From Ascidiella aspersa (Eukaryota): a stretch of DNA of 64,000 nt. Positions 1 to 40,204 of the stretch are shown here, in pieces. Numbering within the stretch: the stretch's first letter is position 1; each line of letters opens with the position of its first letter. The position numbers and the translations under genes are program-made. A model generated the notes under the pieces. It saw nothing but the letters and a program-made list of their open reading frames with translations. It made no database searches and had not been told where the DNA came from. The DNA lies in contig OZ004614.1 in assembly GCA_963924565.1 (NCBI GenBank), forward strand, positions 3,968,001 to 4,032,000, read 5' to 3'.

Positions 1-36
1 ACACGAACCCTTGCTAAAGTTGTTTCTTTAACTTAC

Positions 37-500
37 TTCCAACGCAGTTTCCGCTGATCAGAATGTCGAAAAGTATCTCGGCTGTTCTCGTGAATTCGTC
101 CTCGTGCAAATGAAAGGGTAGATTTAGATCGGCGAGCAGCCTCATTTGATCGAGCGACATGCACTGAAATATAGCATGTGTTTTAAAAGTAGTAAACAAT
201 ATTCTGTAATCTATTTGTAAATACTTCGCTGATCGTTAGACGATTAAGCTATCATTACAAAACGCCTTCACTACTGCATTCATATGCTCAGAATGTAAAA
301 CTCACGAAGAGTCTCACTACTCACGTGAATGCATTCGATTTCACACGTGAAACGCTCCTGCAACTTGCTCGTGAGCGTGACGTAACTAGCCTCATCCACG
401 AAACCCTCGGTGCCCAACAGCTCCGTGAGGTGCGAGAAGCTGTCCTCGTGATCATGATCATGATCGTCATCGTGATCGTCACCTTGATCACCGACTACTT
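37..500 (-). CDS. Module 17 (partial): A 500-325, B 163-37; continues beyond the window
   Basis: Intact exons; the array is cut by the window edge. Confidence 0.83.
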
Positions 501-3500
501 CTGCAATATGACGCCCATGTGGTTCAATTGTAAAAGTTCAATAGAAAATTGTAAACAGCTTAAAATTACTGGAAGGTGGAAAGCTGGCACAAGCGGTGTT
601 TTTAGGTGTTTTTGAGTGAGGAACTTATATTCCAAAGTCAGAAAAAAACTTCTTGTTAAGGTAACAAACCAAATGTTTAAAATAGGTAATTTGTTAATTG
701 GAATTTGATTGCTAGTTAATAAAATAGTGAAAAAAATTGTGGTGTACAATGGTCACACTATATGCTAACACAATAAGCAAACTCAAAACTGAACGTCAAT
801 TCACAAATGTGCTTAAAAAGGAACCTCGAGCTTAAACGAACCTGAATTAGGTACATTTTGCGTTTCTACCCCGAAATGGCGGACGTACGACTTTTGAAGT
901 TGGTCTGTGGTCTGATAAACGCAGTGGCCCTCGAAAAAGTTGGCATGTAGTTGAAAAACGCGCTCATCGACTGTCCTTTCCGCCAGAGTTGAAGCATTAA
1001 AGCACTGCAATGAAGACAGATCGTTTATCGAATTAATGTTAGTCTCGGTGCCGACCGCTTTGGCATTCAGCAGCCTTGGGCATTAAAAAGAGCGCTAATT
1101 AACTATTGCATTTTTGTGGCTACCAATAGCTTTTACAAGGTTGGAAATGTCAGATCATAAGAATGGTAAGCTGGAGTAAATCTACGGCTTGCTGATGTGC
1201 TGAGTTATTTAAACGATCATTACAGGGCGATTATTTTTTGACATAAAAATGAGAAAGTTTGACATAAAAAATTTTAAATTTTGACCAATTTTAAAATTTT
1301 GACCTATAAGAAATACATTGATTTAAACAACATAATGTTGTTTGAAATACTGCATTCGAGTCTTGGCGTCCTCTGCAAGCTCCGTATATAACATATTGCT
1401 CTAATGAAGATAAAATACAGTTAAAATTTCGTTGCATATAACTTAAAGCTAATTTTGTTTGACAAAATGGTAACTGAACGACAATTTCAAAAAACTGACT
1501 AGAGTTTTTCTATTTCGCAAATGATTTTTGAGCATTATTAATCGATTTGACTACAAAACAATTTGACGAACTATGCCTAACGTGTAAATTTTAACAAAGA
1601 TTTTGACTTTTTTGACGAGTCAAAAAATAATCGCCCTAGTCTTAGTAGAAAACACGTCTACCCACCATCTTTGTGTCTTGCTCGTGTTCGTACTTTGGCG
1701 TCAACTTGGCGAGCAGCAGTTCGATTCCCGCCTCGGAAGAAAGGTCAAAAGACGCAAGTGAATCAGGCGAAACTAAGAACCAAACAAATAAGTAATGTTT
1801 AAGTAATATGTAGTAGAATTAAAAAGCCACTAAATATAATGGGAGCCCAAAACACTCTGGTGTTATTTCTTGCGTCCATATACATTACACGAACCCTTGC
1901 TAAAGTTGTTTCTTTAACTTACTTCCAACGCAGTTTCCGCTGACGAGAATGTCGAAAAGTATCTCGGCTGTTCTCGTGAATTCGTCCTCGTGCAAATGAA
2001 AGGGTAGATTTAGATCGGCGAGCAGCCTCATTTGATCGAGCGTCATGCACTGAAATATAGCATGTGTTTTAAAAGTAGTAAACAATATTCTGTAATCTAT
2101 TTGTAAATACTTCGCTGATTGTTAGACGATTAAGCTTTCATTACAAAACGCCTTCACTACCGCATTCATATGCTCAGAATGTAAAACTCACGAAGAGGCT
2201 CACTACTCACGTGAATGCATTCGATTTCACACGTGAAACGCTCCTGCAGCTTGCTCGTGAGCGTGACGTAACTAGCCTCATCCACGAAACCCTCGGTGCC
2301 CAACAGCTCCGTGAGGTGCGAGAAGCTGTCCTCGTGATCATGATGATGATCGTCATCGTGATCGTCACCTTGATCACCGACTACTTCTGCAATATGACGC
2401 CCGTTTGGTTCAATTGTAAATGTTCAATAGAAAATTGTAAACAGCTTAAAATTACTGGAAGGTGGAAAACTGGCACAAGCGGTGTTTTTAGGTGTTTTTG
2501 AGTGACGTACTTATATTCCAAAGTCAGAAAAAAATTCTTGTTAAGGTAACTAACCCAATGTTTTAAATAGGTAATTTGTTAATTGGAATTTGATTGCTAG
2601 TTAAAAAAAAACAGTGAAAAAAATTGTGGTGTACAATGGTTATTATATGCTAACACAATAAGCAAACTCAAAACTGAACGTCAATTCACAAATGCGCATC
2701 AAAAAGTAACCTCGAGCTTAAACGAACCTGAATTAGGTACATTTTGCGTTTCTACCCCGAAATGTCGGACGTACGACTTTTGAAGTTGGTCTGTGGTCTG
2801 ATAAACGCAGTGGCCCTCGAAAAAGTTGGCGTGTAGTTGAAAAACGCGCTCATCGACCGTCCTTTCCGCCAGAGTTGAAGCATTAAAGCACTGCAATGAA
2901 GACAGTTCGTTTATCGAATTAATGTTAGTCTCGGTGCCGACCGCTTTGGCATTCAGCAGCCTTGGGCATTAAAAAGAGCGCTAATTAACTATTGCATTTT
3001 TGTGACTACCACTAGCTTTGACAAGGTTGGAAATGTCAGATCATAAGAATGGTAAGCTGTAGTTAATCTACGGCTTGCTGATGTGCTGAGTTATTTAAAC
3101 GATCATAAGTAGGGCGATTATTTTTTGACATAAAAATGAGAAAGTTTGACATAAAAAATATTGAATTTTGACCAATTTTAAAATTTTGACCTATAAGAAA
3201 TACATTAATTTAAACAACATAATGTTGTTTGAAATACTGCATTAGTGTCTTGGCGTCTTCTGCAAGCTCCGTATATAACATATTGCTCTAATGAAGATGA
3301 AATACAGTTAAAATTTCGTTGAATATAACTTAAAGTTAATTTTGTTTGACAATATGGTAACTGAACGACAATTTCAAAAACTGACTAGAGTTTTTCTATT
3401 TCGCAAATGATTTTTGAGCATTATTAATCGATTTTGACTGCAAAACAATTTGACAAACTTTGCCTAACGTGTAAATTTTAACAAAGCTTTTGACTTTTTT

Positions 3501-6500
3501 AACGAGTCAAAAAATAATCGCCCTATAGTCTTAGTAGAAAACACGTCTACCCACCATCTTTGTGTCTTGCTCGTGTTCGTACTTTGGCGTCAACTTGGCG
3601 AGCAGCAGTTCGATTTCCGCCTCGGAAGAAAGGTCAAAAGACGCAACTGAATCAGGCGAAACTAAGAACCAAACAAATAAATAATGTTTAAGTAATATGT
3701 AGTAGAATTAAAAATCCACCAATTATAATGGGAGCCCAAAACACCCTGGTTTTAATTCTTGCGTCCATATACATTACACGAACCCTTGCTAAAGTTGTTT
3801 CTTCAACTTACTTCCAACGCAGTTTCCGCTGATCAGAATGTCGAAAAGTATCTCGGCTGTTCTCGTGAATTCGTCCTCGTGCAAATGAAAGGGTAGATTT
3901 AGATCGGCGAGCAGCCTCATTTGATCGAGAGACATGCACTGAAATATAGCATGTGTTTTAAAAGTAGTAAACAATATTCTGTAATCTATTTGTAATACTT
4001 CGCTGATTGTTAGACGATTAAGCTTTCATTACAAAACGCCTTCACTACCGCATTCACATGTTCAGAATGTAAAACTCACCAAGAGGCTCACTACTCACGT
4101 GAATGCATTCGATTTCACACGTGAAACGCTCCTGCAACTTGCTCGTGAGCGTGACGTAACTAGCCTCATCCACGAAACCCTCGGTGCCCAACAGCTCCGT
4201 GAGGTGCGAGAAGCTGTCCTCGTGACCATGATCATGATCGTCATCGTGATCGTCACCTTGATCAACGACTACTTCTGCAATATGACGCCGTTATGGTTCA
4301 ATTGTAAATGTTCAATAGAAAATTGTAAACAGCTTAAAATTACTGGAAGATGGAAAACTGGCACAAGCGGTGTTTTTAGGTGGTTTGAATGACGTACTTA
4401 TATTCCAAAGTCAGCAAAAAACTTCTTGTTAAGGTAATTAACCAAATGTTTAAAATAGGTCATTTTGTTAATTGGAATTTGATTGCTAGTTAAAAAAAAA
4501 ACAACAGTGAAACAAATTGTGGTGTACAATGGTCATTATATGCTAACACAAAAAGAAAACTCAAAACTGAACGTTAATTCACAAATGCGCATCAAAAAGT
4601 AACCTCGATCTTAAACTAACCTGAATTAGGTACATTTTGCGTTTCTACCCCGAAATGGCGGACGTTCGACTTTTGAAGTTGGTCTGTGGTCTGATAAACG
4701 CAGTGGCCCTCGAAAAAGTTGGCATGTAGTTGAAAAACGCGCTCATCGACTGTCCTTTCCGCCAGAGTTGAAGCATTAAAGCACTGCAATAAAACAGTTC
4801 GTTTATCGAATTAATGTTAGTCTCGGTGCCGACCGCTTTGGCAATCAGCAGCCTTGGGCATTAAAAAGAGCGCTAATTAACTATTGCATTTTTGTGGCTA
4901 CCAATAGCTTTGACAAGGTTGGAAATGTCAGATCATAAGAACGATAAGCTGGAGTTAATCTACGGCTTGCTGATGTGCTGAGTTATTTAAACGATCATAA
5001 GTAGGGCGATTATTTTTTGACATAAAAATGAGAAAGTTGACATAAAAAATGTTAAACTTTGACCAATTTTAAAATTTTGACCTATAAGAAATACATTGAT
5101 TTAAACAACATAATGTTGTTTGAAATACTGCATTAGTGTCTTGGCGTCCTCTGCAAGCTCCGTATATAACATATTGCTCTAATGAAGATAAAATAAAGTT
5201 AAAATTTTGTTGAATATAACTTAAAATTAATTTTGTTTGACAAAATGGTAACTGAACGACAATTTCAAAAAACTAACTAGAGTTTTTCTATTTCGCAAAT
5301 GATTTTTGAGCATTATTAATCGATTTTGACTACAAAACAATTTGACGAACTATACTTAACGTGCAAATTTTAACAAAGATTTTGACTTGTTTGACGAGTG
5401 AAAAAATAATCGCCCTATAGTCTTAGTAGAAAACACGTCTACCCACCATCTTTGTATCTTGCTCGTGTTCGTACTTTGGCGTCAACTTGGCGAGCAGCAG
5501 TTCGATTCCCGCCTCGGAAGAAAGGTCAAAAGACGCAACTGAATCAGGCGAAACTAAGAACCAAACAAATAAGTAATGTTTAAGTAATATGTAGTAGAAT
5601 TAAAAAGCCACTAAATATAATGGGAGCCCAAAACACCCTGCTGTTATTTCTTGCGTCCATATACATTACACGAACCCTTGCTAAAGTTGTTTCTTTAACT
5701 TACTTCCAACGCAGTTTCCGCTGATCAGAATGTCGAAAAGTATCTCGGCTGTTCTCGTGAATTCGTCCTCGTGCAAATGAAAGGGTAGATTTAGATCGGC
5801 GAGCAGCTTCATTTGATCGAGCGACATGCACTGAAATATAGCATGTGTTTTAAAACTAGTAAACAATATTCTGTAATCTATTTGTAAATATTTCGCTGAT
5901 TGTTAGACGATTAAGCTTTCATTACAAAACGCCTTCACTACCGCATTCATATGCTCAGAATGTAAAACTCACGAAGAGGCTCACTACTCACGTGAATGCA
6001 TTCGATTTCACACGTGAAACGCTCCTGCAACTTGCTCGTGAGCGTGACGTAACTAGCCTCATCCACGAAACCCTCGGTGCCCAACAGCTCCGTGAGGTGC
6101 GAGAAGCTGTCCTCGTGACCATGATCATGATCGTCATCGTGATCGTCACCTTGATCACCGACTACTTCTGCAATATGACGCCCGTTTGGTTCAATTGTAA
6201 ATGTTCAATAGAAAATTGTGAACAGCTTAAAGATACTGGAAGGTGGAAAACTGGCACAAGCGGTGTTTTTAGGTGTTTTGAAGGATGTACTTATATTCCA
6301 AAGTCAGAAAAAAACTTCTTGTTAAGGTAACTAACCAAATGTTTAAAATAGGTCATTTGTTAATTGGAATTTGATTTCTAGTTAAAAAAAAAACAGTGAA
6401 AAAAATTGTGGTGTACAATGGTCATTATATGCTAACACAATAAGCAAACTCAAAATTGAACGTCAATTTACAAATGCGCATCAAAAAGTAATCTCGAACT

Positions 6501-9500
6501 TAAACGAACCTGAATATGGTACATTTTGCGTTTCTACCCCGAAATGGCGGACGTTCGACTTTTGAAGTTGGTCTGTGGTCTGATAAACGCAGTGGCCCTC
6601 GAAAAAATTGGCGTGTAGTTGAAAAACGCGCTCATCGACCGTCCTTTCCGCCAGAGTTGAAGCATTGAAGCACTGCAATAAAACAGTTCGTTTATCGAAT
6701 TAATGTTAGTCTCGGTGCCGACCGCTTTGGCATTCAGCAGCCTTGGGCATTAAAAAGAGCGCTAATTAACTATTGCATTTTTGTGGCTACCACTAGCTTT
6801 TACAAGGTTGGAAATGTCAGATCATAAGACCGGTAAGCTGGTGTAAATCTACGGCTTGCTGATGTGCTGAGTTATTTAAACGATCACATGTAGGGCGATT
6901 ATTTTTTAAAATAAAAATGAGAAAGTTTGACATAAAAAATGTTAAATTTTGACCAATTTTAAAAATTTGACCTACAAGAAATACATTGATTTAAACAACA
7001 TAATGTTGTTTGAAATACTGCATTCGAGTCTTGGCGTCCTCTGCAAGCTCCGTATATAACATATTGCTCTAATGAAGATAAAATACAGTTAAAATTTCGT
7101 TGAATATAACTTAAAATTAATTTTGTTTGACAAAATGGTAACTGAACGACAATTTCAAAAAACTGACTAAAGTTTTTCTATTTCGCAAATGATTTTTGAG
7201 CATTATTAATCGATCTTGACTACAAAACAATTTGACAAACTTTGCCTAACGTGCAAATTTTAACAAAGATTTTGACTTTTTTGACGAGTCAAAAAATAAT
7301 CGCCCTAGTCTTAGTAGAAAACACGTCTACTCACCATCTTTGTGTCTTGCTCGTGTTCGTACTTTGGCGTCAACTTGGCGAGCAGCAGTTCGATTCCCGC
7401 CTCGGAAAAAAGGTCAAAAGACGCAACTGAATCAGGCGAAACTAAGAACCACACAAATAAATAATGTTTAAGTAATATGTAGTAGAATTAAAAAGCCACT
7501 AAATATAATGGGAGCCCAAAACACCCTTCTGTTATTTCTTGCGTCCATATACATTACACGAACCCTTGCTAAAGTTGTTTCTTCAACTTACTTCCAACGC
7601 AGTTTCCGCTGATCAGAATGTCGAAAAGTATCTCGGCTGTTCTCGTGAATTCCTCCTCGTGCAAATGAAAGGGTAGATTTAGATCGGCGAGCAGCTTCAT
7701 TTGATCGAGCGACATGCACTGAAATATAGCATGTGTTTTAAAAGTAGTAAACAATATTCTGTAATCTATTGGTAAATACTTCGCTGATTGTTACACGATT
7801 AAGCTTTCATTACAAAACACCTTCACTACCGCATTCATATGCTCAGAATGTAAAACTCACGAAGAGGCTCACTACTCACGTGAATGCATTCGATTTCACA
7901 CGTGAAACGCTCCTGCAACTTGCTCGTGAGCGTGACGTAACTAGCCTCATCCACGAAACCCTCGGTGCCCAACAGCTCCGTGAGGTGCGAGAAGCTGTCC
8001 TCGTGATCATGATGATGATCGTCATCGTGATCGTCACCTTGATCACCGACTACTTCTGCAATATGACGCCCGTTTGGTTCAATTGTAAAAGTTCAATAGA
8101 AAATTGTCAACAGCTTAAAATTACTGGAAGGTGGAAAGCTGGCACAAGCGGTGTTTTTAGGTGTTTTTGAGTGAGGAACTTATATTCCAAAGTCAGAAAA
8201 AAACTTCTTCTTAAGGTAACAAACCAAATGTTTAAAATAGGTAATTTGTTAATTGGAGTTTGATTGCTAGTTAATAAAATAGTGAAAAAAATTGTGGTGC
8301 ACAATGGTCACACTATATGCTAACACAATAAGCAAACTCAAAACTGAACGTCAATTCACAAATGCGCATCAAAAAGTAACCTCGAGCTTAAACGAACCTG
8401 AATTAGGTACATTTTGCGTTTCTACCCCGAAATGGCGGACGTACGACTTTTGAAGTTGGTCTGTGGTCTGATAAACGCAGTGGCCCTCGAAAAAGTTGGC
8501 ATGTAGTTGAAAAACGCGCTCATCGACTGTCCTTTCCGCCAGAGTTGAAGCATTGAAGCACTGCAATAAAACAGTTCGTTTATCGAATTAATGTTAGTCT
8601 CGGTGCCGACCGCTTTGGCATTCAGCAGCCTTGGGCATTAAAAAGAGCGCTAATTAACTATTACATTTTTGTGGCTACCACTAGCTTTTACAAGGTTGGA
8701 AATGTCAGATAATAAGAACGGTAAGCTGGAGTAAATCTACGGCTTGCTGATGTGCTGAGTTATTTAAACGATCATAAGTAGGGCGATTATTTTTTGAGAT
8801 AAAAATGAGAAAGATTGTTTTGTAGTCAAAAAGTCTTAGTAGAAAACACGTCTACCCACCATCTTTGTGCCTTGCTCGTGTTCGTACTTTGGCGTCAACT
8901 TGGCGAGCAGCAGTTCGATTCCCGCCTCGGAAGAAAGGTCAAAAGACGCAACTGAATCAGGCGAAACTAAGAACCAAACAAATAAATGATGTTTAAGTAA
9001 TATGTAGTAGAATTAAAAAGCCACTAAATATAATGGGAGCCAAAAACACCCTGGTGTTAATTCTTGCGTCCATATACATTGCACGAACCCTTGCTAAAGT
9101 TGTTTCTTTAACTTACTTCCAACGCAGTTTCCGCTGATCAGAATGTCGAAAAGTATCTCGGCTGTTCTCGTGAATTCGTCCTCGTGCAAATGAAAGGGTA
9201 GATTTAGATCGGCGAGCAGCTTCATTTGATCGAGCGACATGCACTGAAATATAGCATGTGTTTTAAAAGTAGTAAACAATATTCTGTAATATATTTGTAA
9301 ATACTTCGCTGATTGTTAGACGATTAAGCTTTCATTACAAAACGCCTTCACTACCGCATTCAAATGCTCAGAATGTAAAACTCACGAAGAGGCTCACTAC
9401 TCACGTGAATGCATTCGGTTTCACACGTGAAACGCTCCTGCAACTTGCTCGTGAGCGTGACGTAACTAGCCTCATCCACGAAACCCTCGGTGCCCAACAG

Positions 9501-12500
9501 CTCCGTGAGGTGCGTGAAGCTGTCCTCGTTATCATGATCATGATCGTCATCGTGATCGTCACCTTGATCACCGACTACTTCTGCAATGTGACGCCCGTTT
9601 GGTTCAATTGTAAATGTTCAATAGAAAATTGTCAACAGCTTAAAATTACTGGAAGGTGGAAAACTGGCACAAGCGGTGTTTTTAGGTGTTTTTGAGTGAG
9701 GTACTTATATTCCAAAGTCAGAAAAAAACTTCTTGTTAAGGTAACAAACCAAATGTTTAAAATAGGCAATTTTGTTAATTGGAATTTGATTACTAGTTAA
9801 AAAAAAAAGTGAAAAAAATTGTGGTGTACAATGGTCATTATATGCTAACACAATAAGCAAACTCAAAACTAAACGTCAATTCACAAATGCGCATCAAAAA
9901 GTAACCTCGAGCTTAAACGAACCTAAATTAGGTACATTTTGCGTTTCCACCCCGAAATGGCGGACGTTCGACTTTTGAAGTTGGTCTGTGGTCTGATAAA
10001 CGCAGTGGCCTTTGAAAAAATTGGCGTGTAGTTGAAAAACGCGCTCATCAACTGTCCTTTCCGCCAGAGTTGAAGCATTAAACCACTGCAATGAAGACAG
10101 TTCGTTTATCGAATTAATGTTAGTCTCGGTGCCGACCGCTTTGGCAATCAGCAGCCTTGGGCATTAAAAAGAGCGCTAATTAACTATTGCATTTTTGTGA
10201 CTACCACTAGCTTTTACAAGGTTGGAAATGTCAGATCATACGAACGGTAAGCTGAAGTTAATCTTCGGCTTGCTGATGTGCTGAATTATTTAAACGATCA
10301 TAAATAGGGCGATTATTTTTTGACATAAAATGAGAAAGTTTGACATAAAAAATGTTAAATTTTGAAAAATTTTAAAATTTTGACCTATAAGAAATACATT
10401 GATTTAAACAACACAATGTTGTTTGAAATACTGCAGTAGTGTCTTGGCGTCCTCTGCAAGCTCCGTATATAACATATTGCTCTAATGAAGATAAAATACA
10501 GTTAAAATTTCGTTGAATATAACTTAAAATTAATTTTGTTTGACAAAATGTTAACTGAACGACAATTTCAAAAAACTGACTAGAGTTTTTCTATTTCGCA
10601 AATGATTTTTGAGCATTATTAATCGATTTTGACTACAAAACAATTTGAAAAACTTTATCTAACGTGTAAATTTTAACAAAGTTTTTGAATTTTTTGACGA
10701 GTCAAAAAATAATCGCCTTAGTCTTAGTAGAAAACACGTCTACCCACCATCTTTGTGTCTTGCTCGTGTTCGTACTTTGGCGTCAACTTGGCGAGCAGCA
10801 GTTCGATTCCCGCCTCGGAAGAAAGGTCAAAAGACGCAACTGAATCAGACGAAACTAAGAACCAAACAAATAAATAATGTTTAAGTAATATGTAGTAGAA
10901 TTAAAAAGCCACTAAATATAATGGGAGCCCAAAACACCCTGGTGTTATTTCTTGCGTCCATATACATTACACGAACCCTTGCTAAAGTTGTTTCTTTAAC
11001 TTACTTCCAACGCAGTTTCCGCTGATCAGAATGTCGAAAAGTATCTCGGCTGTTCTCGTGAATTCGTCCTCGTGCAAATGAAAGGGTAGATTTAGATCGG
11101 CGAGCAGCCTCATTTGATCGAGCGACATGCACTGAAATATAGCATGTGTTTTAAAAGTAGTAAACAATATTCTGTAATCTATTTGTAAATACTTCGCTGA
11201 TCGTTAGACGATTAAGCTATCATTACAAAACGCCTTCACTACTGCATTCATATGCTCAGAATGTAAAACTCACGAAGAGGCTCACTACTCACGTGAATGC
11301 ATTCGATTTCACACGTGAAACGCTCCTGCAACTTGCTCGTGAGCGTGACGTAACTAGCCTCATCCACGAAACCCTCGGTGCCCAACAGCTCCGTGAGGTG
11401 CGAGAAGCTGTCCTCGTGATCATGATCATGATCGTCATCGTGATCGTCACCTTGATCACCGACTACTTCTGCAATATGACGCCCGTTTGGTTCAATTGTA
11501 AATGTTCAATAGAAAATTGTAAACAGCTTAAAATTACTGGAAGGTGGAAAACTGGCACAAGCGGTGTTTTTATGTGTTTTGAATGACGTACTTATATTCC
11601 AAAGTCAGAAAAAACTTCTTGTTAAGGTAACAAACCAAATGTTTAAAATAGGTAATTTTGTTAATTGGAATTTGATTACTAGTTAAAAAAAAAACAGTGA
11701 AAAAAATTGTGGTGTACAATGGTCATTATATGCTAACACAATAAGCAAACTCAAAACTGAACGTCAATTCACAAATGCGCATCAAAAAGTAACCTCGAGC
11801 TTAAACGAACCTGAATTAGGTACATTTTGCGTTTCTACCCCGAAATGGCGGACGTTCGACTTTTGAAGTTGGTCTGTGGTCTGATAAACGCAGTGGCCCT
11901 CGAAAAAGTTGGCATGTAGTTGAAAAACGCGCTCATCGACTGTCCTTTCCGCCAGAGTTGAAGCATTAAAGCACTGCAATGAAGACAGTTCGTTTATCGA
12001 ATTAATGTTAGTCTCGGTGCCGACCGCTTTGGCAATCAGCAGCCTTGGGCATTAAAAAGAGCGCTAATTAACTATTGCATTTTTGTGACTACCACTAGCT
12101 TTTACAAAGTTGGAAATGTCAGATCATAAGAATGGTAAGCTGTAGTTAATCTACGGCTTGCTGATGTGCTGAGTTATTTAAACGATCATAAGTAGGGCGA
12201 TTATTTTTTGACATGAAATGAGAAAGTTTGACATAAAAAATGTTAAATTTTGAAAAATTTTAAAATTTTGACCTATAAGAAATACATTGATTTAAACAAC
12301 ACAATGTTGTTTGAAATACTGCAGTAGTGTCTTGGCGTCCTCTGCAAGCTCCGTATATAACATATTGCTCTAATGAAGATAAAATACAGTTAAAATTTCG
12401 TTGAATATAACTTAAAATTAATTTTGTTTGACAAAATGGTAACTGAACGACAATTTCAAAAAACTGACTAGAGTTTTTCTATTTCGCAAATGATTTTTGA

Positions 12501-15500
12501 GCATTATTAATCGATTTTGACTACAAAACAATTTGAAAAACTTTATCTAACGTGTAAATTTTAACAAAGTTTTTGAATTTTTTGACGAGTCAAAAAATAA
12601 TCGCCTTAGTCTTAGTAGAAAACACGTCTACCCACCATCTTTGTGTCTTGCTCGTGTTCGTACTTTGGCGTCAACTTGGCGAGCAGCAGTTCGATTCCCG
12701 CCTCGGAAGAAAGGTCAAAAGACGCAACTGAATCAGACGAAACTAAGAACCAAACAAATAAATAATGTTCAAGTAATATGTAGTAGAATTAAAAAGCCAC
12801 TAAATATAATGGGAGCCCAAAACACCCTGGTGTTATTTCTTGCGTCCATATACATTACACGAACCCTTGCTAAAGTTGTTTCTTTAACTTACTTCCAACG
12901 CAGTTTCCGCTGATCAGAATGTCGAAAAGTATCTCGGCTGTTCTCGTGAATTCCTCCTCGTGCAAATGAAAGGGTAGATTTAGATCGGCGAGCAGCTTCA
13001 TTTGATCGAGCGACATGCACTGAAATATAGCATGTGTTTTAAAAGTAGTAAACAATATTCTGTAATCTATTGGTAAATACTTCGCTGATTGTTACACGAT
13101 TAAGCTATTATTACAAAACACCTTCACTACCGCATTCATATGCTCAGAATGTAAAACTCACGAAGAGGCTCACTACTCACGTGAATGCATTCGATTTCAC
13201 ACGTGAAACGCTCCTGCAACTTGCTCGTGAGCGTGACGTAACTAGCCTCATCCACGAAACCCTCGGTGCCCAACAGCTCCGTGAGGTGCGAGAAGCTGTC
13301 CTCGTGATCATGATGATGATCGTCATCGTGATCGTCACCTTGATCACCGACTACTTCTGCAATATGACGCCCGTTTGGTTCAATTGTAAAAGTTCAATAG
13401 AAAATTGTCAACAGCTTAAAATTACTGGAAGGTGGAAAGCTGGCACAAGCGGTGTTTTTAGGTGTTTTTGAGTGAGGAACTTATATTCCAAAGTCAGAAA
13501 AAAACTTCTTCTTAAGGTAACAAACCAAATGTTTAAAATAGGTAATTTGTTAATTGGAATTTGATTGCTAGTTAATAAAATAGTGAAAAAAATTGTGGTG
13601 CACAATGGTCACACTATATGCTAACACAATAAGCAAACTCAAAACTGAACGTCAATTCACAAATGCGCATCAAAAAGTAACCTCGAGCTTAAACGAACCT
13701 GAATTAGGTACATTTTGCGTTTCTACCCCGAAATGGCGGACGTACGACTTTTGAAGTTGGTCTGTGGTCTGATAAACGCAGTGGCCCTCGAAAAAGTTGG
13801 CATGTAGTTGAAAAACGCGCTCATCGACTGTCCTTTCCGCCAGAGTTGAAGCATTGAAGCACTGCAATAAAACAGTTCGTTTATCGAATTAATGTTAGTC
13901 TCGGTGCCGACCGCTTTGGCATTCAGCAGCCTTGGGCATTAAAAAGAGCGCTAATTAACTATTACATTTTTGTGGCTACCACTAGCTTTTACAAGGTTGG
14001 AAATGTCAGATCATACGAACGGTAAGCTGAAGTTAATCTACGGCTTGCTGATGTGCTGAGTTATTTAAACGATCATGAGTAGGGCGATTATTTTTTGACA
14101 TAAAAATGAGAAAGATTGTTTTGTAGTCAAAAAGTCTTAGTAGAAAACACGTCTACCCACCATCTTTGTGTCTTGCTCGTGTTCGTACTTTGGCGTCAAC
14201 TTGGCGAGCAGCAGTTCGATTCCCGCCTCGGAAGAAAGGTCAAAAGACGCAACTGAATCAGGCGAAACTAAGAACCAAACAAATAAATGATGTTTAAGTA
14301 ATATGTAGTAGAATTAAAAAGCCACTAAATATAATGGGAGCCCAAAATACCCTGGCGTTAATTCTTGCGTCCATATACATTGCACGAACCCTTGCTAAAG
14401 TTGTTTCTTTAACTTACTTCCAACGCAGTTTCCGCTGATCAGAATGTCGAAAAGTATCTCGGCTGTTCTCGTGAATTCGTCCTCGTGCAAATGAAAGGGT
14501 AGATTTATATCGGCGAGCAGCTTCATTTGATCGAGCGACATGCACTGAAATATAGCATGTGTTTTAAAAGTAGTAAACAATATTCTGTAATATATTTGTA
14601 AATACTTCGCTGATTGTTAGACGATTAAGCTTTCATTACAAAACGCCTTCACTACCGCATTCAAATGCTCAGAATGTAAAACTCACGAAGAGGCTCACTA
14701 CTCACGTGAATGCATTCGGTTTCACACGTGAAACGCTCCTGCAACTTGCTCGTGAGCGTGACGTAACTAGCCTCATCCACGAAACCCTCGGTGCCCAACA
14801 GCTCCGTGAGGTGCGTGAAGCTGTCCTCGTTATCATGATCATGATCGTCATCGTGATCGTCACCTTGATCACCGACTACTTCTGCAATGTGACGCCCGTT
14901 TGGTTCAATTGTAAATGTTCAATAGAAAATTGTAAACAGCTTAAAATTACTGGAAGCTGGAAAACTGCACAAGCGGTGTTTTTAGGTGTTTTTGAGTGAG
15001 GTACTTATATTCCAAAGTCAGAAAAAAACTTCTTGTTAAGGTAACAAACCAAATGTTTAAAATAGGCAATTTTGTTAATTGGAATTTGATTACTAGTTAA
15101 AAAAAAAAGTGAAAAAAATTGTGGTGTACAATGGTCATTATATGCTAACACAATAAGCAAACTCAAAACTGAACGTCAATTCACAAATGCGCATCAAAAA
15201 GTAACCTCGAGCTTAAACGAACCTGAATTAGGTACATTTTGCGTTTCTACCCCGAAATGCCGGACGAACGACTTTTGAAGTTGGTCTGTGGTTTGATAAA
15301 CGCAGTGGCCCTCGAAAAAATTGGCGTGTAGTTGAAAAACGCGCTCATCGACTGTCCTTTCCGCCAGAGTTGAAGCATTAAAGCACTGCAATAAAACAGT
15401 TCGTTTATCGAATTAATGTTAGTCTCGGTGCCGACCGCTTTGGCATTCAGCAGCCTTGGGCATTAAAAAGAGCGCTAATTAACTATTGCATTTTTGTGGC

Positions 15501-18500
15501 TACCACTAGCTTTTACAAGGTTGGAAATGTCAGATCATACGAACGGTAAGCTGAAGTTAATCTACGGCTTGCTGATGTGCTGAGTTATTTAAACGATCAT
15601 AAATAGGGCGATTATTTTTTGACATAAAATGAGAAAGTTTGACATAAAAAATGTTAAATTTTGACCAATTTTAAAATTTTGACCTATAAGAAATACATTG
15701 ATTTAAACAACATAATGTTGTTTGAAATACTGCATTAGTGTCTTGGCGTCCTCTGCAAGCTCCGTATATAACATATTGCTCTAATGAAGATAAAATACAG
15801 TTAAAATTTCATTGAATATAACTTAAAATTAATTTTGTTTGACAAAATGGTAACTGAACGACAATTTCAAAAAACTGACTAGAGTTTTTCTATTTCGCAA
15901 ATGATTTTTGAGCATTATTAATCGATTTTGACTACAAAACAATTTGACAAACTTTGCCTACCGTGTAAATTTTAACAAAGATTTTGACTTTTTTGACGAG
16001 TGAAAAAATAATCGCCCTAGTCTTAGTAGAAAACACGTCTACCCACCATCTTTGTGTCTTGCTCGTGTTCGTACTTTGGCGTCAACTTGGCGAGCAGCAG
16101 TTCGATTCCCGCCTCGGAAGAAAGGTCAAAAGACGCAACTGAATCAGGCGAAACTAAGAACCAAACAAATAAATAATGTTTAAGTAATATGTAGTAGAAT
16201 TAAAAAGCCATTAAATATAATGGGAGCCCAAAACACCCTGGTGTTATTTCTTGCGTCCATATACATTACACGAACCCTTGCTAAAGTTGTTTCTTTAACT
16301 TACTTCCAACGCAGTTTCCGCTGATCAGAATGTCGAAAAGGATCTCGGCTGTTCTCGTGAATTCGTCCTCGTGCAAATGAAAGGGTAGATTTAGATCGGC
16401 GAGCAGCTTCATTTGATCGAGCGACATGCACTGAAATATAGCATGTGTTTCAAAAGTAGTAAACAATATTCTGTAATCTATTTGTAAATACTTCGCTGAT
16501 TGTTAGACGATTAAGCTTTCATTACAAAACGCCTTCACTACCGCATTCATATGCTCAGAATGTAAAACTCACGAACAGGCTCATTACTCACGTGAATGCA
16601 TTCGATTTCACACGTGAAACGCTCCTGCAACTTGCTCGTGAGCGTGACGTAACTAGCCTCATCCACGAAACCCTCGGTGCCCAACAGCTCCGTGAGGTGC
16701 GAGAAGCTGTCCTCGTGACCATGATCATGATCGTCATCGTGATCGTCACCTTGATCACCGACTACTTCTGCAATATGACGCCGTTATGGTTCAATTGTAA
16801 ATGTTCAATAGAAAATTGTAAACAGCTTAAAATTACTGGAAGATGGAAAACTGGCACAAGCGGTGTTTTTAGGTGTTTTGAATGACGTACTTATATTCCA
16901 AAGTCAGAAAAAAACTTCTTGTTAAGGTAATTAACCAAAAGTTTAAAATAGGTAATTTTGTTAATTGGAATTTGATTGCTAGTTAAAAAAAAACAACAGT
17001 GAAACAAATTGTGGTGTACAATGGTCATTATATGCTAACACAAAAAGAAAACTCAAAACTGAACGTCAATTCACAAATGCGCATCAAAAAGTAACCTCGA
17101 GCTTAAACGAACCTGAATTAGGTACATTTTGCGTTTCTACCCCGAAATGGCGGACGTTCGACTTTTGAAGTTGGTCTGTGGTCTGATAAACGCAGTGGCC
17201 CTCGAAAAAATAGGCGTGTAGTTGAAAAACGCGCTCATCGACTGTCCTTTCCGCCAGAGTTGAAGCATTAAACCACTGCAATAAAACAATTCTTTATCGA
17301 ATTAATGTTAGTCTCGGTGCCGACCGCTTTGGCATTCAGCAGCCTTGGGCACTAAAAAGAGCGCTAATTAACTATTGCATTTTTGTGGCTACCAATAGCT
17401 TTTACAAGGTTGGAAATGTCAGATCATAAGAACGGTAAGCTGGAGTAAATCTACGGCTTGCTGATGTGCTGAGTTATTTAAACGATCATAAGTAGGGCGA
17501 TTATTTTTTGACATAAAAATGAGAAAGTTTGACATAAAAAATGTTAAATTTTGACAAATTTTAAAATTTTGACCTATAAGAAATACATTAATTTAAACAA
17601 CATAATGTTGTTTGAAATACTGCATTAGTGTCTTGGCGTCTTCTGTAAAGTCCGTATATAACATATTGCTCTAGTGAAGATAAAATACAGTTAAAATTTC
17701 GTTGAATATTACTCAAAATTAATTTTATTTGACAAAATGGTAACTGAACGACAATTTCAAAAAACTGACTAGAGTTTTTCTATTTCGCAAATGATTTTTG
17801 AGCATTATTAATCGATTTTGACTGCAAAACAATTTGACAAACTTTACCTAACGTGTAAATTTTAACAAAGATTTTGACTTTTTTGACGAGTGAAAAAATA
17901 ATCGCCCTAGTCTTAGTAGAAAACACGTCTACCCACCATCTTTGTGTCTTGCTCGTGTTCGTACTTTGGCGTCAACTTGGCGAGCAGCAGTTCGATTCCC
18001 GCCTCGGAAGAAAGGTCAAAAGACGCAACTGAATCAGGCGAAACTAAGAACCAAACAAATAAATGATGTTTAAGTAATATGTAGTAGAATTAAAAAGCCA
18101 CTAAATATAATGGGAGCCCAAAATACCCTGGCGTTAATTCTTGCGTCCATATACATTGCACGAACCCTTGCTAAAGTTGTTTCTTTAACTTACTTCCAAC
18201 GCAGTTTCCGCTGATCAGAATGTCGAAAAGTATCTCGGCTGTTCTTGTGAATTCGTCCTCGTGCAAATGAAAGGGTAGATTTAGATCGGCGAGCAGCTTC
18301 ATTTGATCGAGCGACATGCACTGAAATATAGCATGTGTTTCAAAAGTAGTAAACAATATTCTGTAATCTATTTGTAAATACTTCGCTGATTGTTAGACGA
18401 TTAAGCTTTCATTACAAAACGCCTTCACTACCGCATTCATATGCTCAGAATGTAAAACTCACGAACAGGCTCATTACTCACGTGAATGCATTCGATTTCA

Positions 18501-21500
18501 CACGTGAAACGCTCCTGCAACTTGCTCGTGAGCGTGACGTAACTAGCCTCATCCACGAAACCCTCGGTGCCCAACAGCTCCGTGAGGTGCGAGAAGCTGT
18601 CCTCGTGACCATGATCATGATCGTCATCGTGATCGTCACCTTGATCACCGACTACTTCTGCAATATGACGCCGTTATGGTTCAATTGTAAATGTTCAATA
18701 GAAAATTGTAAACAGCTTAAAATTACTGGAAGATGGAAAACTGGCACAAGCGGTGTTTTTAGGTGTTTTGAATGACGTACTTATATTCCAAAGTCAGAAA
18801 AAAACTTCTTGTTAAGGTAATTAACCAAAAGTTTAAAATAGGTAATTTTGTTAATTGGAATTTGATTGCTAGTTAAAAAACAACAACAGTGAAACAAATT
18901 GTGGTGTACAATGGTCATTATATGCTAACACAAAAAGAAAACTCAAAACTGAACGTCAATTCACAAATGCGCATCAAAAAGTAACCTCGATCTTAAACTA
19001 ACCTGAATTAGGTACATTTTGCGTTTCTACTCCGAAATGGCGGACGTTCGACTTTTGAAGTTGGTCTGTGGTCTGATAAACGCAGTGGCCCTCGAAAAAG
19101 TTGGCGTGTAGTTGAAAAACGCGCTCATCGACTGTCCTTTCCGCCAGAGTTGAAGCATTAAAGCACTGCAATGAAGACAGTTCGTTTATCGAATTAATGT
19201 TAGTCTCGGTGCCGACCGCTTTGGCAATCAGCAGCCTTGGGCATTAAAAAGAGCGCTAATTAACTATTGCATTTTTGTGACTACCACTAGCTTTTACAAG
19301 GTTGGAAATGTCAGATCATAAGAACGATAAGCTGGAGTTAATCTACGGCTTGCTGATGTGCTGAGTTATTTAAACGATCATAAGTAGGGCGATTATTTTT
19401 TGACATAAAAATGAGAAAGTTTGACATAAAAAATGTTAAATTTTGACCAATTTTAAAATTTTGACCTATAAGAAATACATTGATTTAAACAACATAATGT
19501 TGTTTGAAATACTGCATTAGTGTCTTGGCGTCCTCTGCAAGCTCCGTATATAACATATTGCTCTAATGAAGATAAAATACAGTTAAAATTTCGTTGAATA
19601 TAACTTAAAATTAATTTTGTTTGACAAAATGGTAACTGAACGACAATTTCAAAAAACTGACCAGAGTTTTTTTATTTCGAAAATGATTTTTGAGCATTAT
19701 TAATCGATTTTGACTGCAAAAAAATTTGACAAACTTTGCCTAACGTATAAATTTTAACAAAGATTTTGACTTTTTTGACGAGTCACGTCTGCTCACCATC
19801 TTTGTATCTTGCTCGTGTTCGTACTTTGGCGTCAATTTGGCGAGGAGCAGTTCGATTCCCGCCTCGGAAGAAAGGTCAAAAGACGCAATTGAATCAGGCG
19901 AAACTAAGAACCAAACAAATAAATAATGTTTAAGTAATATGTAGTAGAATTAAAAAGCAACTAAATATAATGGGAGCCCAAAATACCCTGGCGTTAATTC
20001 TTGCGTCCATATACATTGCACGAACCCTTGCTAAAGTTGTTTCTTTAACTTACTTCCAACGCAGTTTCCGCTGATCAGAATGTCGAAAAGTATCTCGGCT
20101 GTTCTTGTGAATTCGTCCTCGTGCAAATGAAAGGGTGGATTTAGATCGGCGAGCAGCTTCATTTGATCGAGCGACATGCACTGAAATATAGCATGTGTTT
20201 TAAAAGTAGTAAACAATATTCTGTAATCTATTTGTAAATACTTCGCTGATTGTTAGACGATTAAGCTTTCATTACAAAACGACTTCATTACCGCATTCAT
20301 ATTCTCAGAATGTAAAACTCACGAAGAGGCTCACTACTCACGTGAATGCAGTCGATTTCACACGTGAAACGCTCCTGCAATTTGCTCGTGAGCGTGACGT
20401 AACTAGCCTCATCCACGAAACCCTCGGTGCCCAACAGCTCCGTGAGGTGCGAGAAGCTGTCCTCGTGAATATGATCATGATCGTCATCGTGATCGTCACC
20501 TTGATCACCGACTACTTCTGCAATATGACGCCCGTTTGATTCAATTGTAAATGTTCAATAGAAAATTGTAAACAGCTAAAAATTACTGGAAGGTGGAAAA
20601 CTGGCACAAGCGGTGTTTTCAGGTGTTTTGAATGACGTACTCATATTCCAAAGTCAGAAAAAAACTTCTTGTTAAGGTAACAAACCAAATGTTTAAAATA
20701 GGTAATTTTGTTAATTGGAATTTGATTGCTAGTTAAAAAAAAAACAGTGAAAAAATTGTGGTGTACAATGGTCATTATATGCTAACACAATAAGCAAACT
20801 CAAAACTAAACGTCAATTCACAATTCGCATCAAAAAGTAACCTCGAGCTTAAACGAACCTGAATTAGGTACATTTTGCGTTTCTACCCCGAAATGGCGGA
20901 CGTTCGACTTTTGAAGTTGGTCTGTGGTCTGATAAACGCAGTGGCCCTCGAAAAAGTTGGCGTGTAGTTGAAAAACGCGCTCATCGACTGTCCTTTCCGC
21001 CAGAGTTGAAGCATTAAAGCACTGCAATAAAACAGTTCGTTTATCGAATTAATGTTAGTCTCGGTGCCGACCGCTTTGGCATTCAGCAGCCTTGGGCATT
21101 AAACAGAGCGCTAATTAACTATTGCATTTTTGTGGCTACCAATAGCTTTTACAAGGTTGGAAATGTCAAATAATAAGAACGGTAAGCTGAAGTTAATCTA
21201 CGGCTTGCTGATGTGCTGAGTTATTTAAACGATCATAAGTAGGGCGATTATTTTTTGACATAAAAATGAGAAAGTTTGACATAAAAAATGTTAAATTTTG
21301 ACCAATTTTAAAATTTTGACCTATAAGAAATACATTGATTTAAACAACATAATGTTGTTTGAAATACTGCATTAGTGTCTTGGCGTCCTCTGCAAGCTCC
21401 GTATATAACATATTGCTCTAGAGAAGATAAAATACAGTTAAAATTTCGTTGAATATAACTTAAAATTAATTTTGTTTGACAAAATGGTAACTGAACGACA

Positions 21501-24500
21501 ATTTCAAAACACTGACTAGAGTTTTTCTATTTCGCAAATGATTTTTGAGCATTATTAATCGATTTTGACTACAAAACAATTTGACAAACTTTGCCTAACG
21601 TGTAAATTTTAACAAAGGTTTTGACTTTTTTGACGAGTCAAAAAATAATCGCCCTAGTCTTAGTTGAAAACACGTCTACCCACCATCTTTGTGTCTTGCT
21701 CGTGTTCGTACTTTGGCTTCAACTTGGCGAGCAGCAGTTCGATTCCCGCCTCAGAAGAAAGGTCAAAAGACGCAACTGAATCGGGCGAAACTAAGAACCA
21801 AACAAATAAATCATTTTCAAGTAATATGTAGTAGAATTAAAAAGCCACTAATTATAATGGGAACCAAAAACACCCTGGTTTTAATTCTTGCGTTCATAAT
21901 AATTACACGAACCCTTGCTAAAGTTATAATAAGAATATCAAAGCCCATACAGAAGTAGGTCTCATTTTGGACGTTTCGAATAACTCTGTTGAACATGAAT
22001 AAAGAGTTATGCGAAACGTCCAAAATGATACCTACTTCTGTATAGGCTTTGATATTCTTATTACGTCTTACTACAACTTCCAAACATTATGCCCCAAACT
22101 TGCGAAAGTTGTTTCTTCAACTTACTTCCAACGCAGTTTCCGCTGATCAGAATGTCGAAAAGTATCTCGGCTGTTCTCGTGAATTCGTCCTCGTGCAAAT
22201 GAAAGGGTAGATCCAGATCGGCGAGCAGCCTCATTTGATCGAGCGACATGCACTGAAATATAGCATATGTTTTAAAAGTAGTAAACAATATTCTGTAATC
22301 TATTTGTAAATACTTCGCTGATCATTAGACGATTAAGCTTTCATTACAAAACGCCTTCACTACCGCATTCATATGCTCAGAATGTAAAACTCAAGAAGAG
22401 GCTCACTACTCACGTGAATGCATTCGATTTCACACGTGAAACGCTCCTGCAATTTGCTCGTGAGCGTGACGTAACTAGCCTCATCCACAAAACCCGCGGT
22501 GCCCAACAGCTCCGTGAGGTGCGAGAAGCTGTCCTCGTGAATATGATCATGATCGTCATCGTGATCGTCACCTTGATCACCGACTACTTCTGCAATATGA
22601 CGCCCGTTTGATTCAATTGAAAATGTTCAATAGAAAATTGTAAACAGCTTAAAATTACTGGAAGGTGGAAAACTGGCACAAGCGGTGTTTTTAGGTGTTT
22701 TGAATGACGTACTTATATTCCAAAGTCAGAAAAAAACTTCTTGTTAAGGTAACAAACAAAATGTTTAAAATAAGTAATTTTGTTAATTGGAATTTGATTA
22801 CTAGTTAATAAAACAGTGAAAAAAATTGTGGTGTACAATGGTTATTATATGCTAACACTATAAGCAAACTCAAAACTGAACGTCAATTCACAAATGCGCA
22901 TCAAAAAGTAACCTCGAGCTTAAACGAACCTGAATTAGGTACATTTTGCGTTTCTACCCCGAAATGGCGGACGTTGGACTTTTGAAGTTGGTCTGTGGTC
23001 TGATAAACGCAGTGGCCCTCGAAAAAGTTGGCGTGTAGTTGAAAAACGCGCTCATCGACTGTCCTTTCCGCCAGAGTTGAAGCATTAAAGCACTGCAATA
23101 AAACATTTTGTTTATCGAATTAATGTTAGTCTCGGTGCCGACCGCTTTGGCATTCAGCAGCCTTGGGCATTAAAAAGAGCGCTAATTAACTATTGCATTT
23201 TTGTGGCTACCACTAGCTTTTACAAAGTTGGAAATGTCAGATCATAAGAACGGTAAGCTAGAGTTAATCTTCGGTTTGGTGATGTGCTGAGTTATTTAAA
23301 CGATCATAAGTAGGGCGATTATTTTTTGACATAAAAATGAGAAAGTTTGACATAAAAAATGTTAAATTTTGACCAATTTTAATTTTTTAACCTATAAGAA
23401 AAACATTGATTTAAACAACATAATGTTGTTTGAAATACTGCATTAGTGTCTTGGCGTCCTCTGCAAGCTCCGTATATAACATATTGCTCTAATGAAGATA
23501 AAATACAGTTAAAATTTCGTTGAATATAACTTAAAATTAATTTTGTTTGACAAAATGTTAACTGAACGACAATTTCAAAAAACTGACTAGAGTTTTTCTA
23601 TTTCGCAAATGATTTTTGAGCATTATTAATCGATTTTGACTGCAAAACAATTTGACAAACTTTACCTAACGTGTAAATTTTAACAAAGATTTTGACTTTT
23701 TTGACGAGTGAAAAAATAATCGCCCTAGTCTTAGTAGAAAACACGTCTACCCACCATCTTTGTGTCTTGCTCGTGTTCGTACTTTGGCTTCAACTTGGCG
23801 AGCAGCAGTTCGATTCCCGCCTCGGAAGAAAGGTCAAAAGACGCAACTGAATCAGGCGAAACTAAGAACCAAACAAATAAATCATTTTCAAGTAATATGT
23901 AGTAGAATTAAAAAGCCACTAAATATAATGGGAGCCCAAAATACCCTGGTGTTATTTCTAGCGTCCATATACATTGCACGAACCCTTGCTAAAGTTGTTT
24001 CTTTAACTTACTTCCAACGCAGTTTCCGCTGATCAGAATGTCGAAAAGTATCTCGGCTGTTCTCGTGAATTCGTCCTCGTGCAAATGAAAGGGTAGATTT
24101 AGATCGGCGAGCAGCTTCATTTGATCGAGCGACATGCACTGAAATATAGCATGTGTTTCAAAAGTAGTAAACAATATTCTGTAATCTATTTGTAAATACT
24201 TCGCTGATTGTTAGACGATTAAGCTTTCATTACAAAACGCCTTCACTACCGCATTCATATGCTCAGAATGTAAAACTCAAGAAGAGGCTCACTACTCACG
24301 TGAATGCATTCGATTTCACACGTGAAACGCTCCTGCAACTTGCTCGTGAGCGTGACGTAACTAGCCTCATCCATGAAACCGTCGGTGCCCAACAGCTCCG
24401 TGAGGTGCGAGAAGCTGTCCTCGTGATCATGATCATGATCGTCATCGTGATCGTCACCTTGATCACCGACTACTTCTGCAATATGACGCCCGTTTGGTTC

Positions 24501-35217: not shown

Positions 35218-36076
35218 GATTTTATTCTCTAAACAAGCTCCAAAACAGCTATAAAAGAAAATCATCTTTGTTAGCGTTTTGTTTGCTTACGGATTTCGAT
35301 ATTGTCTTGTAGGCCATCCAATGGAATTATGGTGCGTATTTAGAAAAATATTTTCTATAAAAGTAGTCTGTTTTAAATAATAAAAGCGGCAACACGCAAA
35401 ATAATATGTGAAGTTAAGATTAAATACATCATAATGACCTAATGCAAACAAGTCCTGTAGACTTTCGTGTATTTCCATAAAAATAAAATTGTCCGAGTCT
35501 ATATAAAGTCTATAATCTCTTTAGTAAAAGCAAAATATTTTATACGCTGTGAATTAGGCTTTGCCGTTTGAAACCTCAATGAGCTACGTTGACCGAAAAG
35601 GTGCAAAACAAAAATTAGTGTTTCATATATTTTTAGTATTTGTTTCATCTGCATCATGGCAATCTTCCGATTACGAAGAGATTCGTTACACTTTCAATTT
35701 AGGTCACACAGGGCAATCTACTCTTTTTCGTCAGACATCCTTAAGCATTCAACAGCTTCCTTCGTTCTTTTTTCTTTGCAAAGCTTCTTCGCCGCGCTTT
35801 GGCACAACTCAGAAAAAATCGCCCTTTTTATATTTTGGCGCTGCATTAAAAAAACAAGGACGCGGCGCGGTATGACGTTGCTGATGGTAACTTAGCTTTT
35901 TTAATTGCATTGTGCCCGCCGAAATTTACCAACGGACGTTAACTCTGGTTGAACCCTTTCCAAATCGTCGTGTTTGCTCAAGGAGCTCAACTTGCGTCAT
36001 TTGGCCTTGCGAAATTTTCAGCGTCCGATTGTTTTACGTCTTGCCTTTGTTTGCTTTACATTACAGGTACTTGAGT

Positions 36077-36318
36077 TTTTAGCTTGGCGCAGCAAAAAAA
36101 TCAAAATTTTAGCTTGGCGCAGCAAAAAAAAATCAAAATTTTGGCTTTGCGCAGCATGAAAATCGAAATTTTGGCTTTGCGCAGCATGAAAATCAAAATT
36201 TTGGCTTGGCTCAGCAAAAAAAATCAAAATTTTAGCTTGGCGCAGCAAAAAAATCAAAATTTTAGCTTGGCGCAGCACAAAAATCAAAATTTTAGTTCGG
36301 CGCAGCAAAAAAATCAAA
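36077..36318. repeat. ~30-bp minisatellite, about 8 copies
   Basis: Unit TTTAGCTTGGCGCAGCAAAAAAATCAAAAT. Confidence 0.93.
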
Positions 36319-39300: not shown

Positions 39301-39371
39301 AGATATAGGGTCAATTAGCGAAATTAGTTTAGTAAATACTTGGGTACACTATGCACGGATCTGTAATGTAG

Positions 39372-39479
39372 CTTGATAATAAATTGCAAAGCCAAAAAGG
39401 TCGAGTAGATCGACAGCATCTTGATTAAGACGTTTCGATACTAGCTCGATCCTTTTTGGCTTTGCAATTTATTATCAAG
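39372..39479. repeat. 108-bp imperfect palindrome downstream of the ZIP stop
   Basis: CTTGATAATAAATTGCAAAGCCAAAAAGG ... CCTTTTTGGCTTTGCAATTTATTATCAAG. Confidence 0.85.
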
Positions 39480-40063
39480 TTCAGTAAATGCTTAATTAAA
39501 AACTCAAGTACACAGCGATCAAAATAATAAAAAGGGCACTCTGGGCGCAATGGTGACCTAAACATATTACTTAAGTAACAAATATCCAAAAGATTATATA
39601 GACAAATATAATTCGACGGAAAGCATTAGTAAAACTATGCTTAATCTTTAGCGCATTTTCGTTGATAAACTTAAGGTAAATAGGTGTGACCACAATTATT
39701 ATTGGTTAACTCGTAAAAGAAGCACATTAAACGCCAAAGTTACTTTTTTATTAAAAGATTCTCCGAATTGGTTTAACATTATTATATATAAGGTCACAGG
39801 AAACAAAAATCAAACAAGAAACAGTCTTCATTAGGAACAAAAACCGGACCAATGAAAAATAGCACACGATATAAAAACGTATGTAGAAAAGTTGCTTAAA
39901 TTAGAGTTAAAAAACTCACAGGAAACAATGGAAAACGAAAACTACAAATTAAACCCGTATCAACAGCCAATGCTATAGTGCACGAAATCCTTGGTAGCCG
40001 CTCTTAACGACCACGAAGTGTGCGTTAACTTATATCACATATAGCGCTCTCTGGCGGGGTCTA

Positions 40064-40204
40064 TTATCCCCGGATACTGTCCACTAGCTGGTCCTCGTAG
40101 AGTGACAGCACGAGCATGATCGCCCATCCAAGCACCATTCCGAAGTTCTGCAGGAAAAATTGGAGCACGGGAAAGTGTGAATCATCATCCACCATTTCGT
40201 GAAG
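40064..40204 (-). CDS. ZIP exon 14, TM8 and stop
   Basis: ttccag acceptor; LHEM...[31 protein letters not shown] then TAA TAG. Confidence 0.93.
   Translation of the reverse strand, partial: LHEMVDDDSHFPVLQFFLQNFGMVLGWAIMLVLSLYEDQLVDSIRG

Follow-up and report, generated by a model that had tools for sequence, protein, structure and literature searches.

The window, a 64,000-nucleotide stretch of Ascidiella aspersa contig OZ004614.1 (G000:C8, positions 3968001-4032000), was examined together with 120 kb on its left and 40 kb on its right. Two neighbouring paralogous genes, designated A and B, are encoded there on the minus strand (Table 1). A tandem array of ~1.9-kb units fills the left half of the window, each unit carrying four minus-strand exons that are copies of gene A exons 2-5. 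These exons form the modules of gene B, 16 of which are complete inside the window; the whole array holds 21 and is 39 kb long in the assembly. A genome-wide search with exon D matched all 22 candidates, 21 in the array of gene B and one in gene A.

The array runs out of the window at its left edge, as the sequence-only reading made earlier of this DNA had stated, and leaves exons A and B of module 17 inside. The same reading had noted that counterparts of ZIP exons 6-14 are missing from the units. This holds: tblastn with eight of these nine gene A exons (exon 11 left out) gave no meaningful score inside any unit. The DNA to the left of the window, where it had proposed to search for them, contains one further match to each of gene A exons 7-10 and 12-14.

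Table 1. Features of genes A and B. Window positions count from the first letter of the window; contig positions are those of OZ004614.1.
Feature	Position	Strand	Details
Gene A, tandem paralogue	window 40064..59638	minus	14 coding exons, 682 aa, one module, furin-type RRRR, HNFGDG and HELPHE
Gene B first coding exon (signal peptide)	window 35142..35217	minus	76 nt, phase 1; length and phase as in first coding exon of gene A
Gene B modules 1-16	window 842..30284	minus	exons A (170-176 nt), B (127), C (107), D (163)
Module 17 exon A	window 325..500	minus	His/Asp patch and start of helix-rich domain
Module 17 exon B	window 37..163	minus	
Intron crossing left window edge	window 1..36	minus	
Rest of module 17 and modules 18-21	contig, down to 3959340	minus	
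His/Asp exon	contig 3958922-3957919	minus	1,004 nt
PAL exon	contig 3957655-3957478	minus	
TM1-2 exon	contig 3956411-3956242	minus	
TM3 exon	contig 3954698-3954546	minus	
Two loop exons	contig 3954208-3954095 and 3953251-3953149	minus	
TM4-5 exon	contig 3951569-3951417	minus	
TM6-7 exon	contig 3950127-3949940	minus	
TM8 and stop exon	contig 3948791-3948651	minus	

Gene structure and module fold

The gene B model has 94 exons separated by 93 introns, all GT-AG, with phases matching those of the 14-exon gene A. Its 14,301 coding nucleotides have no stop and no frameshift, and the predicted product of 4,766 amino acids, ~540 kDa without the signal peptide, is read from one open frame with ~4,400 residues outside the cell. 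Residues 1-20 form a hydrophobic segment in the hydropathy profile. Each membrane exon of gene A has an in-frame counterpart in gene B, and both predicted proteins end on TM8. The hydropathy of the membrane part gives an identical set of seven segments in the two proteins, the polar TM5 falling below threshold in both. The motifs ATTAAA and AATAAA are found 32 and 834 nt past the gene B stop, respectively.

The TM4-5 and TM6-7 exons, each taken alone, score 38.1 and 46.1 bits against Pfam Zip (PF02535, cut-off 35.1 bits), with three more exons under the cut-off. The PAL exon matches PF21116 below the cut-off (E 0.0065), and the PAL motif reads C-P-G-F in both genes. Gene B is a ZIP by profile, and it is a ZIP4/12-like gene by descent. 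Its architecture is very probably a signal peptide, 21 modules, a His/Asp tract, a PAL-type domain and an entire ZIP membrane domain. The ectodomain has 377 His, 928 Asp+Glu and 240 Lys+Arg, with a pI of ~4.5; the His/Asp tract accounts for 314 residues, 122 of them His and 108 Asp.

The sequence-only reading had left the carboxyl terminus to be decided between a secreted or GPI-anchored protein and a transporter with an ectodomain of over 3000 residues. At the DNA level a gene for a solely secreted or GPI-anchored product is refuted, the transporter exons continuing in frame to TM8; secreted splice forms may occur. The transporter option stands for the gene structure, with PAL and membrane exons following the last module in frame and an ectodomain even longer than proposed; however, the HNFxDG and HELPHE motifs that it named are themselves altered (CNFGDG and CHEVPRGFGD). 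Since these motifs are changed, the presence of the membrane exons does not imply a working zinc transporter.

Every module has phase 1 at both ends and codes for 190-191 amino acids, which comprise, from the amino to the carboxyl end, a His/Asp patch, a ZIP4-type helix-rich domain (HRD) and the first helix of a PAL-containing domain. Six cysteines are kept in 19 of the 21 modules. In the other two, modules 7 and 11 (window 17275 and 10085), exon D begins with Trp rather than Cys and one cysteine is left unpaired. In the related protein P0001 the helix 215-225 is encoded in exon D and the next helix in the His exon, so the repeat boundary is an exon border inside the PAL-containing domain. The end of exon D is ancestral in module 21, and its hydrophobic residues are replaced in modules 1-19, as would be expected if that helix had turned into a linker.

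The nearest named proteins are the ascidian ZIP12-like P0001 and P0002 of Phallusia mammillata and P0003 of Clavelina lepadiformis. They are colinear with gene A in the signal, module, PAL and membrane parts, with identities of 50-57%. Unlike gene B, these proteins and gene A have a single module, an R-x-K/R-R site and an intact HELPHE. Pfam gave no meaningful match to the single module exons of gene B, and its ZIP4_domain profile (PF18292) matches the module homologues P0006 and P0007 below the cut-off (E 2e-5 and 9e-5). A structural model of P0001 was built from five sequences and has good confidence in the module alone, with a pLDDT mostly of 60-85 at residues 60-210; the membrane part, below 50, was left out. 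Residues 70-222 of this model, from a homologue 39% identical to gene B, superpose on residues 37-200 of the ZIP4 ectodomain 4x82 as the top hit among 48,161 chains (138 residues, rmsd 4.1), with a Z of 10.5 that lies below the caution level of the tool for helical folds. Foldseek also placed 4x82 first (E 0.003). The modules of gene B align to the modelled helix-rich region of P0001, and P0001 aligns to 4x82 over the PAL-containing domain as well. By homology, each module of gene B is identified as a ZIP4 helix-rich domain.

Gene B shares with ZIP4 and ZIP12 (SLC39A4 and SLC39A12, LIV-1 subgroup I) the signal peptide, HRD, ZIP membrane domain and a putative PAL-containing domain, in which a loop rich in histidine joins helices 11 and 12 (4x82, PMC4915132). 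In contrast, ZIP4 has one HRD in an ectodomain of 327 residues (PMC9727157), while gene B has 21, each led by a His/Asp patch. The short loop of ZIP4 is represented in gene B by the His/Asp tract, and three motif positions are occupied by Cys, Arg and Gly. In the prion protein, the model behind the secreted or GPI-anchored option, a ZIP ectodomain likewise went its own way, and the transporter was lost (PMC2745754, PMC5874730). In gene B the entire membrane domain is retained, and it is the HRD that has expanded, not the PAL-containing domain.

A phmmer search with the P0001 module against 1.84 billion representatives gave 12 matches, six of them true (P0002, P0006, P0007, P0008, P0012 and P0015), with one stretch each. 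The six matches with several stretches were rejected as chance: five are bacterial-type proteins that carry secretion, cadherin or PKD domains, and one is a low-complexity repeat. P0001 residues 56-350 matched only P0001 and P0002 among 4,608 candidates of 373-1,189 residues, and a weak search with exon D alone against proteins of 96-2,000 residues returned no candidate. No protein with repeated helix-rich domains was thus found in the protein databases, which is weak to moderate evidence given the length limits and depth of these searches, and a literature search found no study of a multi-module ZIP or of an ascidian ZIP. The ZIP family and the HRD are already known; a ZIP with 21 tandem helix-rich domains appears to be new, and the predicted protein is several times longer than any ZIP found in the database searches.

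Short palindromic elements of MITE-like type, with inverted arms of ~60 bp, are inserted in modules 1 and 5 (window 21927-22088 and 29625-29784). Such elements are spread over many introns of both genes and have a very high depth in the DNA runs. The first intron of gene B (window 30560-33900) carries at least 10 degenerate copies of a ~320-bp unit, 60-90% alike. Rfam gave no match in window 30300-40000.

Selection, array authenticity and expression

Modules 2-19 differ by 44 variants that change an amino acid and by 32 silent ones (pN/pS 0.37, p=4e-5). Their 573 exon sites have no indel while 1,313 intron sites have 39, a contrast somewhat inflated by the clustering of the intron indels in homopolymers. 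Comparison of gene B with gene A gives dN/dS values of 0.18-0.25 for the eight modules tested and of 0.22-0.25 for the membrane part (0.22 for TM4-8), with a dS of 0.5-0.7. The part of the protein after the array has evolved about seven times faster in gene B than in gene A (branch lengths 0.32 and 0.047), and among 150 otherwise invariant columns 14 are changed in B and six in A. As gene B carries most of the protein change, its own dN/dS is probably nearer 0.4, an estimate that assumes equal silent rates. The module pN/pS and the dN/dS against gene A show purifying selection on gene B. The pseudogene that the sequence-only reading had kept as an option is unlikely, in view of the module pN/pS and of the absence of exon indels.

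The 21 genomic units are pairwise distinct, the inner ones differing by at least 0.5% and by a median of 3.5%, and the longest exact repeat is 634 bp. All units being different, the array is not a single unit that was assembled repeatedly. The last two units are 14-22% away from all others. Distinct end units with alike inner units are the pattern expected when the middle of a genuine array has been homogenised. Modules 9 and 12 (window 7335-14881) have in common a shortened C-D intron, in units of 1,525 bp that are 0.8% apart, although the modules next to them show no such pairwise likeness; modules 17/18 and 2/4 form close pairs too. Such pairs are taken as records of patchy exchange. A Dscam-like diversity role of the modules was considered and rejected, the modules being 96-99% alike.

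The gene B membrane-exon region was found in two DNA samples. One RNA run, of which ~6% was read, covers the last-exon bin of gene B at ~1x, on the strand that gene B would be read from. Coverage is zero in the bins for TM6-7, for loop 1 and for the final part of the His/Asp exon, and no exon-exon joint appears among those listed. The reads of this run on the membrane exons are dominated by intronic repeats, 1,398 of 1,416 lying only partly on the stretch. No RNA dataset was listed for the last exon of gene B used as query.

Altered transport site and loss of the furin-type site

LIV-1 proteins are defined in TM5 by the motif HExPHExGD. Gene A and P0001-P0003 have it; in gene B this segment reads HEVPRGFGD in place of HELPHE, and TM4 has CNFGD where the canonical HNFGD carries the site-1 His. 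Gene B is accordingly classed as LIV-1-derived and not as a canonical member. By spacing, in ZIP4 numbering, H507 is replaced by Cys, H540 by Arg and the next Glu by Gly, while N508, D511, H536 and E537 are kept. A contig of the second DNA sample spans the TM4-5 exon with one silent change only, and its identical motif residues show that the replacements are not an assembly slip. Eight other LIV-1-like loci found in the genome keep HNFxD and HELPHE, HEIPHE or EEFPHE where the exon is in view. Motifs of ZIP12 are given in PMC4222902.

Human ZIP4 with the H540R replacement transports at about the wild-type level with a lower zinc affinity, H507A is moderately reduced and H507R abolishes transport (PMC5573306). 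The combination of His to Cys, His to Arg and Glu to Gly has no counterpart in the ZIP4 mutant passages of that paper. From the behaviour of these single mutants, the gene B site is regarded as altered and not as demonstrably dead.

The TM4 Cys of gene B is also present in P0001, whose close paralogue P0002 lacks it. In a six-row tree gene A joins gene B (99/98) and P0001 joins P0002 (100/99). This pairing means that the change of His to Cys arose twice, unless gene conversion masks an older split, and the Cys of the Phallusia paralogue was apparently gained independently of gene B.

The His loop of the four single-module proteins scanned (gene A and P0001-P0003) bears an R-x-K/R-R sequence, which we take to be a putative furin-type cleavage site, and P0006 and P0007 have a similar basic run. 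Neither R-x-K/R-R nor R-x-x-R occurs in the 4,427 ectodomain residues of gene B, in which the site-bearing loop is replaced by the His/Asp tract. The ectodomain of ZIP4 is shed under zinc deficiency (PMC9727157).

Proposed mechanism and possible metal uptake

Gene B would have arisen by tandem duplication of gene A. The four-exon block, with phase 1 at both ends, may then have been amplified through unequal crossing-over with breaks at exon borders. Inner modules would consequently end in an orphan helix, now likely a linker, and only module 21 would complete a PAL domain. As the His/Asp tract occupies the place of the basic cleavage site, the arm is likely to remain attached. PMC4915132 describes a homodimer through the PAL domain and, in ZIP14, an inter-chain disulfide at the position of the Cys that just precedes the PAL-equivalent proline in gene B. 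The gene B protein likely dimerises as well, perhaps through a disulfide at this Cys. Its pore keeps Asn, Asp, His and Glu ligands, and the loss of two histidines could mean weaker zinc binding or a preference for another metal. An acidic, His-rich and uncleaved arm would raise the local metal supply to such a low-affinity or retuned pore, gene A acting as an ordinary importer. From a domain cross-section of 35 angstroms (PMC4915132), 21 domains would reach ~70-80 nm if extended. Taken as a whole, this mechanism, with a membrane-anchored protein of ~540 kDa whose arm likely binds metal and whose low-affinity pore likely still passes ions, is held to be slightly more probable than the alternatives together. 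The scant RNA signal, the dead H507R mutant of ZIP4, the faster evolution after the array and the cysteine lost from two inner modules weigh against it.

It is rather unlikely that the ZIP domain of the same giant membrane protein is non-transporting and serves as anchor or metal sensor for a metal sponge or coat at the cell surface, import being left to gene A. The three adjacent motif changes and the faster evolution, both confined to B, are consistent with this role, and the faster evolution after the array also fits a loss of transport. The other LIV-1-like copies found in the genome keep the usual motifs, with gene A as the intact copy, and human ZIP4 was found to sense zinc through its transport site too (PMC7661102). 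The retained ligands argue for a functional pore instead, as do the ZIP4 mutants H540R and H507A that still transport and the low dN/dS of TM4-8. The same Cys in P0001, which has an ordinary ectodomain, suggests that this change is tolerated or useful.

The main products of gene B might instead be shorter, either because modules are skipped in variable number or because the transcript ends in the intron after the His/Asp exon to yield a secreted metal-binding polymer, the full form being rare. Phase 1 at both ends of the modules would let any number of them be skipped in frame, and read-through of that intron meets a stop after 5 codons and an AATAAA 153 nt in. AATAAA is, however, frequent in gene B introns, with 15 in the first one and presence in five of the eight introns after the His/Asp exon. 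Splice sites and frame are also intact in all 21 modules and the membrane exons are constrained, so that shorter main products are improbable.

A silent or decaying duplicate, or an array inflated by assembly, is very unlikely: the near-zero RNA support in a single run read to ~6% and the youth of the inner modules, which at ~3.5% apart may have had little time to break, are set against the frame open over the whole coding length, the contrast of exon with intron indels, the module pN/pS, a silent divergence from A reached with the frame intact, and the distinct units and two-sample recovery of the membrane exons.

The function of the ZIP4 helix-rich domain is unsettled, accessory and sensor roles having been offered (PMC4915132). 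Of the human ZIP4 disease mutations treated in this literature, half map to the ectodomain. Gene B, with 21 copies of the helix-rich domain under purifying selection, lies beside a one-copy sister with an intact pore and cleavage site. The two genes form a pair suited to test metal capture, shedding and the substrate of the Cys/Arg site. Should the substrate not be zinc, the pair would bear on metal uptake in ascidians.

Phallusia accumulates vanadium, and the A. aspersa genome has two loci, 13 kb apart, that score above the Pfam cut-off for the Vanabin-2 family (L033 and L034, G000:C3, ~25.48 Mb). A decidedly doubtful extension of the favoured mechanism is that vanabin-bearing sea squirts twice retuned a duplicated ZIP4/12-like importer for a non-zinc metal such as vanadyl or iron, the site-1 His being exchanged for Cys. 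A tethered arm of tens of nanometres with several hundred His/Asp ligands would then harvest trace metal at the cell surface, and gene B would be a candidate for the route by which accumulated metals enter ascidians. The convergent Cys, found in two cases, was rejected as proof of vanadium transport.

Other ZIP genes of the genome show separate features. L030 (4575-5045; G000:C9:15.05 Mb) is another ZIP4/12-like gene, with an in-frame stop in TM6-7 at the position of an expected tyrosine, and may be a broken copy or contain a sequence error. Four near-identical ZIP6/10-like LIV-1 loci (L022-L025, G000:C5, ~17.5 and 18.6 Mb), three of them inside a 35-kb stretch, suggest that ZIP genes have recently expanded here as well.
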